Shown: piece by piece, positions 20,141 through 60,902 of the stretch
Layout: each line of letters starts with the position of its first letter
How positions within the stretch are numbered: position 1 is the first letter of the stretch
Source: Candidatus Enterousia sp.
GTDB lineage: Bacteria; Pseudomonadota; Alphaproteobacteria; Rs-D84
Assembly (NCBI GenBank): GCA_045647355.1
Contig: JAZRMF010000005.1
Span: forward strand, 13,288 to 77,287
Reading direction: 5' to 3'
Length of the DNA: 64,000 nucleotides
The notes under the pieces: generated by a model
What the model saw: the letters and a program-made list of their open reading frames with translations, nothing else
The model's database searches: none
What the model was told of the DNA's origin: nothing
Program-made: the position numbers and the translations under genes

Positions 20141-20214
20141 GCGGGCGTGGTATAATGGCAGCACGAAAGCTTCCCAAGCTTTAGACGAGGGTTCGATTCC
20201 CTTCGCCCGCACCA
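20141..20214 (+). tRNA. tRNA-Gly (CCC)
   Basis: GCGGGCG acceptor stem, AAAGC-TTCCCAA-GCTTT anticodon arm, GGTTCGATTCC T-arm, encoded CCA. Confidence 0.95.
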
Positions 20215-20415
20215 AAAATAGGACCGACCAAAGTGTCGGTTATATTTTTGGCTTGTGGCAACGGAAGAGAACCCGACCAAGAAGGTTCGAAACCAAGTAG
20301 ATTTTGCAAGTGTAGTGTGGCAAAATCGTTACGGGTTGCCCGCAGGCATTTATGCCGAGAGATCCCCTTCGCCCACACCAAAAATTCAACCGGCATTCCG
20401 CCGGTTTGTTTTTTG
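20215..20415 (+). repeat. tRNA-associated structured element, copy A
   Basis: Hairpin, degenerate antisense copy of the tRNA-Gly 3' end (20245-20273), core homologous to copy B (20284-20360), 23/25 direct copy of the tRNA 3' end (20361-20385), second hairpin. Confidence 0.85.
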
Positions 20416-20421
20416 TATGTA

Positions 20422-21000
20422 CTAGCGATGAAAACTAAGGCAGTCGGCGCACCAACCGTTCATACGTATATGTCTGCGACGTGGTTCTTTCTTTTCGTTA
20501 TACTTGCTGGATAATGCTGAAGTCCGGATCTTAACAGGTTTCTGTTCTGGTTGAATATTATATTTGACTTTCAGTTGTTGCAACAGCCCAGATTCAACAT
20601 GGCAAAAACATTCCTCTTTTATCTGTGACCCTTTTTTAACATTGCACGCTGTACACATTGGTGTCATATTTTTAATATTATCGGGGCCCCCAATAAATCT
20701 GGCAAATATATGATCCCATGAAAATTGTTTAAAATCTATTATCTCTTTGCCACAAGATGAACACCTTGGGGGTTGGCCATGCGCCGCCAAGATACGGTAC
20801 AGATTTTTAATATCAGCTGAAGTCAATTGATTTTGCAATGTTGCAATTGTTGTCAAAATTCCCGTGATTTCCTGGGTGCATTTTTGTGGTTGATCTCGCA
20901 CCACAGAGACACGATTTATTATTCTAATATCCCTTGGGGTGAATTGATCTGTTAACGATTCTATACTTGTCACAACCTCTGTTATTTCTTCATCTGTCAT
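20422..21000 (-). CDS. HNH endonuclease with duplicated N-terminal helical unit
   Basis: CSSC...DHIFARFIGGPDNIKNMTPMCTACNVKKG. Confidence 0.85.
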   Translation of the reverse strand: MTDEEITEVVTSIESLTDQFTPRDIRIINRVSVVRDQPQKCTQEITGILTTIATLQNQLTSADIKNLYRILAAHGQPPRCSSCGKEIIDFKQFSWDHIFARFIGGPDNIKNMTPMCTACNVKKGSQIKEECFCHVESGLLQQLKVKYNIQPEQKPVKIRTSALSSKYNEKKEPRRRHIRMNGWCADCLSFHR

Positions 21001-33665: not shown

Positions 33666-34004
33666 ATGAGCAAACTATCAAAACAATTTAAAAACGAATG
33701 TATCGACATATTACAATCTGCAGATGTAACCATCACACAATCACAAGAAACCGAATATTATTTTGTTCTACGCACAGTGTATAACGTATCCCAAGATAAT
33801 ATGCACAAGTTTGAAATGAATATAGTCCCGGGGCGTTTTGGTATCTCACATTATACAATAACAAAACCAAATGGCCAAAAATTTTCATGTCGCGCACGTC
33901 CAGACGCCATTTTATTTCATCGCCCCAGGGCGGATGACATGCTGGAAATATTTCGCGCATTATGCCTTCGACATTTGATTCAAGAAAACAACACAAAGAA
34001 ATAA
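33666..34004 (+). CDS. Hypothetical protein
   Basis: 112-aa ORF; own promoter-like TGGACA..TAGAAT and AAGGA RBS. Confidence 0.65.
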   Translation: MSKLSKQFKNECIDILQSADVTITQSQETEYYFVLRTVYNVSQDNMHKFEMNIVPGRFGISHYTITKPNGQKFSCRARPDAILFHRPRADDMLEIFRALCLRHLIQENNTKK

Positions 34005-51228: not shown

Positions 51229-51345
51229 ACCGCCCCCCGCACAAAAACGCCTAAATTAGCAGTTGTGCATTAAATTGGATGTCTTCATCCCGCCTTTAAA
51301 ATCAAAAAAATCCGCATTCGGGCTTTTAAGATTGAATTAAAAAAA

Positions 51346-51515
51346 AGACGAAGGGATTCCCTTGGCACTTTGTGCCTGCGGGTAAACCGTGACGATTTCG
51401 GCTCGTTTCACTTCCGAAATCTACTTGTTTTCGAACCAGCAACTGCGTCGCGAACGATTTGTCCACCCTTCATATCCGACAAAAATAAAATGCCCAAATG
51501 GGCATTTGATCTTTG
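51346..51515 (-). repeat. tRNA-associated structured element, copy B
   Basis: Hairpin, 14/16 antisense copy of the tRNA-Ser 3' end (51466-51481), core homologous to copy A (51437-51360), truncated direct copy GAATCCCTTCGTCT. Confidence 0.85.
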
Positions 51516-51606
51516 TGGCGGAGATGAAGGGATTCGAACCCTTGATACGGTTGCCCGTATACCACATTTCCAATGTGGCGCACTAGACCAACTATGCGAC
51601 ATCTCC
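51516..51606 (-). tRNA. tRNA-Ser (GGA)
   Basis: GGAGATG acceptor, CCACA-TTGGAAA-TGTGG anticodon arm, long variable arm, GGTTCGAATCC, CCA. Confidence 0.95.
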
Positions 51607-60811: not shown

Positions 60812-60902
60812 GGAGATATGGCAGAGCTGGTTGAATGCGCACGACTCGAAATCGTGTATACAGGAAACTGTATCGAGGGTTCGAATCCCCCTATCTCCGC
60901 CA
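60812..60902 (+). tRNA. tRNA-Ser (CGA)
   Basis: GGAGATA acceptor, CACGA-CTCGAAA-TCGTG, long variable arm, GGTTCGAATCC, CCA; upstream TTGCAA-N16-TATAAT. Confidence 0.95.

Follow-up and report, generated by a model that had tools for sequence, protein, structure and literature searches.

What kind of element repeats the end of a tRNA gene directly behind that gene, once inverted and once in direct orientation, and encloses a folded insert between the two copies? The question is raised by positions 20215–20415 of a 64,000-nt stretch of a Candidatus Enterousia sp. genome (the window), which follow the gene for tRNA-Gly(CCC). This element is called copy A here, and a second one, behind tRNA-Ser(GGA), copy B. 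The first-pass annotation of the window saw in them a constant scaffold with target-specific arms, such as a guide-like RNA or a tRNA-targeted mobile element would have. The reading tentatively favoured here, with rather less than even confidence, is that a mobile module resembling repetitive extragenic palindromic (REP) sequences sits in inverted triplications of tRNA ends made by replication, and that the element does not carry guides. The observation that bears most directly on this choice is that the insert, or core, and the tRNA-derived arms around it have separate histories.

The window belongs to an assembly (G000) of 1.09 Mb in 11 contigs, with 41% G+C and 93.5% completeness, and the DNA runs that contain the stretch are animal gut and bovine gut metagenomes. 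It was compared with 60 genomes of the same genus (the congeners, ~0.9–1.1 Mb in size), four of the sister family and 36 from 15 other families of the order. The genomes profiled are metagenome-assembled genomes (MAGs), mostly 89–98% complete.

Anatomy of the core and its arms

The core is a module of ~75 nt that consists of two GYAG-headed hairpins, each closed by a short helix. In copy A it occupies 20291–20362 (+), ends in ..CGAGAGA, and scores 100.6 bits with R1, a covariance model built from the four cores of the own genome; covariation and blocks of similarity that stop at its borders delimit it. All four helices of the core, on the plus strand, are supported by covariation: H1 pairs 20291–20294 with 20334–20337, H2 is a GTAG-headed hairpin with a 12-nt loop (20300–20307 with 20320–20327), H4 pairs 20339–20341 with 20359–20361, and H3 is a GCAG-headed hairpin (20345–20348 with 20353–20356). 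Across 40 distinct sequences the three helices of R1 were 95.2% paired, compared with 75.1% in shuffles, and none of 500 shuffles reached the observed value. They held 116 double-change cells against 32.6 in shuffles, a signal that was lost when the partners were slid, so the covariation first noticed between copies A and B is kept in the larger alignment. These pairing and double-change figures are upper bounds, because the core alignment was fitted to R1 and comes from related sequences. H4, a 3-bp helix of the form CNC...GNG around hairpin 3, is wholly Watson-Crick in 43 of the 55 parsed copies, and its middle pair varies: CCC/GGG in 25, CGC/GCG in 15 and CAC/GTG in 3.

Non-canonical pairs show which strand folds. 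A 2-bp mini-stem inside the 12-nt loop of H2 has 83 Watson-Crick, 23 G.T and 6 A.C cells, and H1–H3 have 10 G.T and 3 A.C cells, which gives 33 G.T against 9 A.C in all. Because G.T exceeds A.C, the core folds on the tRNA-sense strand, and may act as RNA or as single-stranded DNA. Folds of the two copies in the window were more stable than most shuffled sequences: z = -2.6 for copy A, with 1 of 200 shuffles as good, and z = -3.1 for copy B, with 0 of 200. In a set of 58 hits of R1 in the own genome and its relatives (the denominator of all counts over 58 below), the last G of a GTAG tag is the first paired base of H2 in 56, and RYAG heads H3, also in 56. The 8-bp stem of H2 is followed by CGTC (25/58) or CGTT (31/58), and this CGTY shares the last base of the stem. 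On the tag counts and the helices, the core thus consists of two GTAG-type, REP-like hairpins placed head-to-tail, each with a short helix around it.

Around this core, each locus carries the segment from the tRNA T-arm to the terminator three times, first direct, then inverted, then direct again, and the two hinges fall on the terminator hairpin and the T-arm (GAACC...GGTTC). In copy A, all on the plus strand, the host tRNA-Gly(CCC) gene lies at 20141–20214 (ARAGORN; Rfam tRNA, 63.2 bits), and its part from T-arm to 3' end forms direct copy 1. The first direct repeat, 20195–20226, taken as the reference copy in the repeat search, comprises the 3' half of the T-loop, the 3' strand of the T-stem, the 3' strand of the acceptor, CCA and the start of the trailer. 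A terminator-like hairpin at 20222–20241, bidirectional in a two-strand terminator scan, forms the hinge at which direct copy 1 meets the inverted copy. The latter, at 20245–20273, is degenerate, and the complement of the T-loop within it reads GAGAACC rather than TCGAACC. A second hinge lies at 20269–20288, where GAACC (20269–20273) pairs with GGTTC (20284–20288) across a 10-nt loop, as minimum-free-energy and centroid folds agree. GGTTCGA at 20284–20290, the 5' half of a T-loop copy, forms the left border of the core. The second direct repeat, 20361–20392, comprises GA followed by the same series of T-loop, T-stem and acceptor strands, CCA and trailer, and a second bidirectional terminator-like hairpin (20388–20406; terminator scan) closes the unit. 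A similar hairpin stands directly behind the tRNA in the empty-site contig of a related strain described below.

The repeat geometry is regular. The direct pair 20195–20226 / 20361–20392 is 84% identical over 32 nt at a spacing of 166, and a second direct pair, 20237–20250 / 20402–20415, is 79% identical over 14 nt. The duplication thus takes in the terminator, because the second pair keeps the 165–166 nt spacing of the first. One set of inverted arms (20189–20228 / 20235–20274; 40 nt, 73% complementary, 6 nt between) is centred on the terminator loop, and another (20234–20264 / 20365–20395; 31 nt, 71% complementary) on the core. The terminator scan of both strands found 5 terminator-like sites at copy A where 0.5 were expected from shuffles. 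Every part that the first-pass annotation had listed for copy A is in place, including the direct copy of the tRNA end at 20361–20385, which matches 20195–20219 at 23 of 25 positions.

Copy B lies on the minus strand behind tRNA-Ser(GGA) (51516–51606; ARAGORN and Rfam) and has the same parts in a less complete form. Its first terminator-like hairpin is at 51488–51507 (terminator scan), the inverted copy of the tRNA-Ser 3' end at 51466–51485 (20-nt arms, 85% complementary to 51512–51531), and GGTTCGA with the core at 51353–51437, converted to window coordinates from the R1 hit at G000:C5:64640-64724 (101.6 bits). The direct copy of the tRNA-Ser 3' end (51346–51359; repeat search, 93% over 14 nt) is partial, and a T-run cuts it off after 13–14 nt. 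Loci A and B align at 76% mean column identity, tRNAs included, close to the 75–80% first estimated by eye for the cores, and the compensatory stem change from GATTTTGC/GCAAAATC in copy A to GATTTCGG/CCGAAATC in copy B, with the 12-nt loop kept, is indeed present. Behind copy B, at 51277–51345 (-), there is one more terminator-like module, AATCTTAAAA..GATTTTTTTGATTTT, together with another inverted copy of the tRNA-Ser 3' end, truncated and core-less, GGCGGGATGAAGACATCC (51277–51294; read by eye); this stretch looks like the remnant of another unit. A third tRNA gene in the window, Ser-CGA at 60812–60902 (+), was called by ARAGORN along with the other two and has no such element behind it.

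Two other identities were considered for the unit and rejected. The hinge resembles part of a hammerhead ribozyme, which is a three-way junction with a CUGANGA ... GAAA core and a UH cleavage site (..GANGAG-stem-CGA.. in the hinge, in some relatives CUGAUGAG-stem-CGAAAC), but the positions of the ribozyme core are not conserved: C3 and U4 vary with the tRNA, A14 is a C in many copies (GGTTCGACAAC), and Rfam HH9 reached 13.3 bits against a gathering threshold of 52. A tRNA-like gene, or one like a permuted transfer-messenger RNA (tmRNA), was called by neither ARAGORN nor Rfam in the units, and the true alpha-type tmRNA is elsewhere. The latter is a two-piece, permuted alpha_tmRNA of 171 bits at G000:C5:85876-86215 (+), outside the window, a gene that ARAGORN did not call; this match puts the organism in the Alphaproteobacteria.

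Separate histories of core and arms

The first-pass annotation had both arms matching the host tRNA, and this is firm for the sense arm only. For 10 elements of the own genome, the element's own tRNA ranked first among 45 in the match to the sense arm. An exact direct repeat of at least 12 nt is present in 36 of the 58 hits, and many such repeats extend over CCA, trailer and terminator, with lengths of 45 to at least 60 nt (53 nt at locus L010, 57 at L085, 58 at L014, and at least 60 at L016, L166, L167 and L183). From the 3' arm of the terminator onward, the antisense arm follows the tRNA end's complement colinearly, and it tracks the tRNA weakly. With generic tRNA features (TGG/CCA, T-loop, A/T tract) set aside, the own tRNA ranked 1, 3, 3, 3, 5, 7, 10, 12, 13, 15, 17 and 17 among 45 for 12 elements of the own genome. 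Among 35 elements the own tRNA was strictly best for none, with a median score of 6.0 versus 5.5 for others, figures in which some arm windows are mis-set by a long hairpin 3.

A comparison of identities separates the two parts of the element. Forty-one elements were labelled by eye with the repeated tRNA, and pairs sharing the first three digits of their locus identifiers were excluded. Identity over the inverted arm and hinge (55 nt upstream of the core) averaged 0.683 between elements at the same tRNA (54 pairs) and 0.529 at different tRNAs (765 pairs); in the core, the same two sets of pairs gave 0.754 and 0.730. Thirteen pairs of cores at least 90% alike were found at different tRNAs, with upstream identities of 0.04–0.64. 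For example, the Ser-GGA core of the own genome and the Gly-CCC core of one congener (G007) have an identity of 0.94 in the core and 0.11 upstream. Among the 58 cores that remain once a duplicate row is removed, the nearest neighbour often belongs to another genome and another tRNA. Conversely, the inverted arm and hinge keep a recognisable likeness between orthologous loci (7 genomes for Gln-TTG, 3 for Gly-CCC), while the cores there come from different sublineages. The arms are thus part of the locus, and it is the core that moves or is exchanged. The proposal of a constant scaffold with guide-like, target-specific arms finds no support here, since the arms follow the locus and highly similar cores carry unlike arms.

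The borders of the core are sharp. Where near-identical cores stand at different loci, similarity stops at GGTTCGA on the left and at ..CGAGNGAAT(CC) on the right. The left 7-mer is GGTTCGA in 42 of the 58 hits and otherwise a T-loop variant that follows the host (AGTTCGA, GGTCCGA, GGTTCA). The core is thus placed between GGTTCGA and the (GA)ATCC of the last tRNA-end copy, and since the distal direct repeat starts at the GA of the T-loop, GA flanks the core on both sides. Some cores have other neighbours: one is nested at GGGA^AT in the 3' end of another core family (L178), one lies directly behind another core in tandem (L028), one follows ..ATGA at a gene end away from any tRNA (L182), and two in two other MAGs (L092, L096) are at ATACCGA^AT in a hairpin loop behind a terminator, with a neighbouring copy of the hairpin empty. 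In all such settings, nested, tandem or outside tRNA contexts (L172, L182, L092 and L096), the core comes after ..GA.

Other repeats occur in the same places. At L172 (G035:C3:131900-133000) the core lies amid G+C-rich short repeats, ..CCCCGCCCC.., and GGAGG/CCTCC-rich palindromes of another repeat family. A separate miniature element of ~105 nt, in which a terminator-like module lies between terminal inverted repeats (TACGAGAATACACAATTA ... TTATTGTGTATCGAG), occurs within or beside several copies: the Tyr copy (G000:C4, ~33700-33805), the Glu-TTC copy (G000:C5, ~347800-347930), L010, L026, L177 and L182. Two of these show 8-bp target duplications, GAGTAGGG at Glu-TTC and CGAGCGAA in L182. Many tRNA terminators of the own genome and its relatives share a palindromic frame in which CCA-AAAATTCAAACC, a hairpin and GGTTTTAATTTTTGG follow one another; it is loosely like DNA-invertase half-sites and like -35/-10 words, at a spacing that varies from 13 to 16 by eye.

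Distribution, turnover and candidate enzymes

The structured repeat is tied to tRNA 3' ends well beyond the window. In the own genome, BLAST placed the core of copies A and B (family 1) at five places that correspond to four loci, all just 3' of tRNAs (Gly-CCC, Ser-GGA, Gln-TTG and Tyr-GTA), and R1 gave two extra weak hits, also behind tRNAs (Lys-CTT and Pro-TGG). The 130 nt behind each of the 45 tRNA genes, and longer stretches behind selected ones, were also read by eye. This reading added a second family with the same architecture (GGTTCGACACGATAG...) behind Val-TAC, Lys-CTT, Pro-CGG, His, Lys-TTT and Glu-TTC, and a third behind Pro-TGG, also of the same architecture, with a truncated unit behind one tRNA-Met. 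Family 2 has the H1/H2 fold and the apical loop motif of family 1, the mini-stem being common to both. Counting all core families, 11–12 of the 45 tRNAs, about one quarter, are occupied by this reading. All copies examined are intergenic, and the element is always oriented as its tRNA. The ends of contigs C5 (441983-442046) and C4 (33810-33930) both fall within the Tyr copy and share a 99-nt overlap; the repeat thus breaks the assembly at the tRNA-Tyr locus.

The model matched 53 of the 60 congeners, 1 of the 4 genomes of the sister family and 0 of the 36 from other families of the order. The number of matches per genome ranges from 0 to 24 (E <=0.01); G007 gave 28 when searched alone. The element matched no Rfam family: only the three tRNAs reached gathering in the window, and permissive searches with copy A and seven other copies gave nothing near gathering. 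The model and Rfam searches, which the first-pass annotation had suggested as a check, bore out its view of a repeat with further copies. The blastn search of copy A against phage and plasmid collections gave no match. A specific pattern had 0 matches in viral contigs and 0 in JGI metagenome contigs. With a loose pattern, a collection of genome contigs yielded 120 stretches, and 3 of the 80 loci listed match R1 (L085, L092 and L096); one external core match is on a contig titled uncultured alphaproteobacterium. Literature searches found no published description of this arrangement of tRNA ends and core; the additional files of PMC3733652, which lay outside the reach of these searches, might list related repeats.

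Presence and absence vary between close relatives. An 896-nt contig of sequencing run X6 passes from 20220 to 20423 by way of 36 letters that hold only a terminator-like hairpin, which is an empty site in a related strain. In run X1 a 2895-nt contig is gapless over 20185–21000 and crosses the filled site. Contigs of run X9 pass from core to tRNA end and from core to core. Relatives contain identical tandem units with a period of 161–172 nt (three copies of 171 nt at L035), and no open reading frame (ORF) was found inside units, tandem ones included. Units of different core families are stacked at one tRNA at L017, L016 and L024. The family found at a given tRNA also differs among species: Lys-CTT and Lys-TTT have family 2 here, and family 1 occurs at Lys-CTT in G035 and at both in G007. 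The hallmarks of the mobility suspected at first – different tRNAs occupied in different species, tandem arrays and an empty site in a related strain – are thus present. Next to copy A, an ORF for a putative HNH endonuclease of 191 aa (20422–21000, minus strand; PF14279 4.6e-10, PF01844 3.5e-08) ends at terminator 2; it lies outside the element, because its 3' part is also in the empty-site contig.

Cargo genes are found between the tRNA and the element in several relatives (L008, L015, L019, L022 and L031), bounded by short repeats of the acceptor end. They encode a C-5 cytosine methylase, an AAA_14/DUF4143 ATPase, and GNAT and TetR proteins, and a gene for Slam (surface-lipoprotein assembly modifier) lies on the other side of the copy at L019. 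The own genome has an islet at the 3' end of tRNA-Ser(GCT) (G000:C5:176469-179684) with a phage-type integrase (367 aa), a DUF3631 protein (412 aa) and small ORFs; it contains no core, and no repeat of the end of that tRNA was found at its far side.

The usual transposases and recombinases do not account for the element. Its own genome has two Xer-like recombinases, one integrase, one large serine recombinase and one reverse transcriptase (RT), none of them beside a copy. The RT (337 aa, G000:C1:374388-375401) stands alone among ORFs without a Pfam match, and the serine recombinase (G000:C5:304290-304742, in an open frame of 556 aa) is ~2.3 kb from tRNA-Ser(TGA). Y1/HUH transposases (PF01797) are absent from the own genome and present in 1 of the 60 congeners (G028), where the gene is of the IS200 type with unrelated hairpins. 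The IS110 recombinase (PF01548) was found in 0 of 60 relatives (0 of 61 with the own genome). RTs (PF00078) occur in 24 of the 60 congeners, and the high-copy genomes (G020, G002, G035 and G001, with 11–14 matches each) have none. Serine recombinases are present in 53 of the 60, near a copy in one noted case only (G033:C14). The tyrosine recombinases examined were Xer-like or phage-type by length and context, with no integron-type enzyme seen among them; in G020, with 14 matches of R1, they are two Xer-like ones only. None of these five classes tracks the element, in agreement with the earlier remark that no cognate enzyme is evident.

Origin of the element and known systems

The favoured reading has two layers. 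The arms may be an inverted triplication of a segment of ~45–60 bp, from the T-arm of the tRNA to the terminator, made by template-switching or fold-back during replication at these palindromes. The order would be copy 1, which is part of the working tRNA, the inverted copy, the second direct copy and the second terminator, with the junctions on the terminator hairpin and the T-arm palindromes. Recombination between the direct copies could keep them alike, delete the unit to leave an empty site, or amplify it into tandem arrays, and the inverted copy may be degenerate since long perfect palindromes are not tolerated. The core would be the part that moves or is exchanged; it lies near the centre of the palindrome made by the inverted and the last direct copy, and would land after ..(C)GA and before AT, dependent on an activity supplied in trans. 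Because a triplication copies whatever tRNA end is there, the arms of each locus would match their own tRNA with no need of a guide or an enzyme. The direct-inverted-direct geometry, read at first as a guide-like layout, is what an inverted triplication would be expected to give without one, and the antisense arm is only weakly specific for its tRNA.

Several observations sit poorly with this explanation. Spontaneous triplication should sometimes be empty, yet none of the 45 tRNAs of the own genome shows a scaffold free of a core, and another MAG provides the only candidate for an empty target, a non-tRNA hairpin (L092). The inverted copy is ~70% degenerate at loci where the direct copies are perfect (L014 and the Val-TAC copy of the own genome), so that homogenisation of the direct copies has to be assumed in addition. 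In the type of scaffold that lacks an extra GCAAC..GTTGC hairpin, the complement of the T-loop is always changed from ..TCGAACC to ..GAGAACC; because the change is the same each time it looks selected rather than decayed, and the model does not explain it. An enzyme for core movement is also wanting: RAYTs, the REP-associated Y1 transposases, are represented by the 1 unrelated case in 60 congeners, and IS110 by 0 of 60. The occupied tRNAs show no replication-strand bias (6 of 11 co-oriented by GC skew, compared with 21 of all 38 tRNAs on two large contigs), and a single-strand route like that of IS200 is therefore disfavoured. Gene conversion among cores, instead of transposition, could also explain why core and arms have separate histories. 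The alignments behind the pair counts are fitted to the model, and kinship among the sequences inflates the shuffle statistics.

An unlikely but live alternative is a miniature integrative element of the kind known as cis-mobilizable elements (CIMEs). A unit of ~170–200 bp would integrate as a circle at the T-loop or 3' end of the tRNA, restoring the gene and displacing its original end, by a recombinase supplied in trans from islands or phages, and the core would be a recognition or accessory region. The direct repeat reaches from the T-loop past the 3' end, as at attL/attR sites of the T-loop type, and at copy A the tRNA end in the working gene is intact while the distal one has 2 changes and is followed by a terminator of the empty-site type. 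Stacking of different families at one tRNA (L017, L024 and L016) resembles accretion, the islets with a C5 methylase, AAA_14/DUF4143, GNAT and TetR lie between tRNA and element with short 3'-end repeats, and GA on both sides of the core is as a 2-nt crossover would leave it, with serine recombinases in 53 of the 60 congeners. But at least 12 different tRNAs are occupied in one genome, which would require many specificities or a recombinase that reads the T-loop only; G020 combines 14 matches with two Xer-like recombinases, the integrase and serine recombinase of the own genome are not beside copies, and the case near a copy in G033:C14 is the sole one noted. Core and arms travel apart, unlike an element the size of the unit, a covarying fold specific to one strand is unexpected of a double-stranded attachment site, and the core was not found in the viral contigs, phages and plasmids searched.

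A second live rival, unlikely as well, is that the units are expressed as structured small RNAs in tRNA trailers. The inverted and the distal direct arm would close a long helix ending in ..CCA, the hinge and the two arms of the core would complete a four-way junction, and the RNA would act on a reader of tRNA ends in processing, as a decoy or in regulation, the DNA repeats being merely how the gene was copied. Strong covariation with G.U-type pairs on the tRNA-sense strand only, a feature as fine as the 2-bp mini-stem in the 12-nt loop shared by two core families, the constant orientation, a terminator at the end of each unit, and orthologous occupancy across species at some tRNAs (the 7 genomes with Gln-TTG and 3 with Gly-CCC) all fit. 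Against it, a strong bidirectional terminator stands between tRNA and element, no promoter-like site was found between terminator 1 and the core in either copy in the window, and the -35/-10-like words around terminator 1 are spaced 13–16 by eye. The arm helix is imperfect and runs over CCA, no Rfam family corresponds, and 0–24 matches per genome (28 in G007), an empty site and identical tandem units are the behaviour of a selfish repeat. These two explanations and that of a module in a triplication are not fully mutually exclusive. By comparison, a guide-type RNA, or a folded single-strand site of a programmable recombinase (like a bridge RNA, an omega RNA or attC) whose arms specify the tRNA, is highly improbable. 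The order of antisense arm, structured core and sense arm is superficially alike, and the fold is strand-specific. However, IS110 is absent from all 60 congeners, Y1/HUH is the 1 unrelated instance, and RT is present in 24 and in none of the high-copy genomes. The two arms are paired together instead of lying in open loops, the sense arm reaches into the terminator as a duplication would and a guide would not, the own tRNA is strictly best for the antisense arm in 0 of 35, and the arms are inherited with the locus, not with the core. This decoupling of arms and core brings the guide explanation close to refutation.

A more specific and rather unlikely proposal is that the core is a cis-acting folded substrate, RNA or single-stranded DNA, of an unrecognised insertion system not based on HUH, DEDD or RT enzymes, which would read CGA^AT at the tip of a hairpin – the T-arm being the natural case – and would make or need the triplication so that the tRNA survives. 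If this were true, a new insertion mechanism would have the T-loop as its target, and the element would represent a new class of mobile element, guided by structure, that could spread to all tRNA genes of a reduced genome. On the two-layer reading, should it hold, the palindromes of a tRNA gene (T-arm and terminator) can give rise to arms that look matched to a target, with neither a guide nor a dedicated enzyme, which calls for caution in layout-based scans for programmable elements. These genomes of ~0.9–1.1 Mb also offer a natural test system in which REP-like modules persist and turn over without a RAYT. In practical terms, the repeats break assemblies at tRNA loci, as at the ends of C5 and C4, and mark tRNA genes that collect islets.

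Islands that integrate at tRNA genes, and the CIMEs related to them, are bounded by attL and attR, direct repeats of the tRNA 3' end that start in the T-loop and leave the tRNA intact. The element is like them in its direct repeat from the T-loop (exact over at least 12 nt in 36 of 58, and 84% over 32 nt in copy A), its intact tRNA and its tandem accretion at one tRNA. It is unlike them in that no integrase adjoins it (no ORF lies in the units, and the phage-type integrase of the own genome is away from the copies), an inverted copy is present, the core interrupts the distal T-loop copy, and the unit is ~170–200 bp. Palindrome-associated transposable elements (PATEs) of IS200/IS605 and attC sites share with it the lack of terminal inverted repeats and of an ordinary target duplication, hairpins near both ends, insertion next to a short fixed word and a fold of one strand. 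Here, however, Y1 is missing, there is no lagging-strand bias (6/11), and no gene cassettes lie between copies. It is possibly an attC-like folded single-strand site in a loose sense only. The DEDD recombinase that goes with IS110 and bridge RNAs was found in 0 of 61 genomes, and the co-occurring RT expected of a retron, a group II intron or a diversity-generating retroelement was in 24 of 60 congeners and in none of the high-copy genomes named above.

[quoted passage not shown] The units of ODIRA described there are kilobases long, selected for dosage and, in yeast, in need of an origin; here the unit is ~50 bp, occurs at about a dozen tRNA genes per genome, and always has the same kind of insert.

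The closest likeness is to REP sequences and to their compound forms, REP doublets forming hairpins (REPINs) and bacterial interspersed mosaic elements (BIMEs). The accessible text of PMC3733652 (Di Nocera et al. 2013) describes GTAG and CGTC super-families with loops of 4–5 nt, as well as REP families nested in long 'target palindromes' that were never found empty. REPs there are short imperfect GTAG-headed hairpins with compensated stems, in many extragenic copies downstream of genes, joined into larger folds and nested in a palindrome, and the present element is alike in each of these respects: H2, with its 8-bp stem and 12-nt loop, fits the imperfect palindrome of 20–40 bp with a GTAG tag at one end, and there are many extragenic copies mainly downstream of genes. 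No RAYT gene accompanies it (PF01797 0 in the own genome, 1/60 in congeners). This too has a parallel in the same part of that paper, where alphaproteobacterial CGTC repeats, including RPE-4 and RPE-6 of Rickettsia, and dRS3 of Neisseria have no dedicated transposase. The CGTC-tagged REPs further resemble the element in their alphaproteobacterial host and 8-bp stems, and in the tag, which is CGTC or CGTT here; they differ, compared by description, in that an unpaired end tag precedes a stem starting with AT, whereas CGTY here is 3' of the stem. The element thus bears on the question, raised in PMC3733652, of how tagged palindromic repeats spread without a transposase. Compared with REPs and REPINs as described there, the hairpins are head-to-tail and wrapped by two extra helices into a fixed module of ~75 nt, the loop of H2 is 12 nt long with a mini-stem instead of 4–5 nt, and the target palindrome is the host tRNA's own 3' end, a link to tRNAs for which the accessible text of PMC3733652 has no counterpart. 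What is new relative to REP is therefore the fixed two-hairpin, four-helix module, a target palindrome drawn from the end of the host tRNA, and an insertion point in the T-loop.

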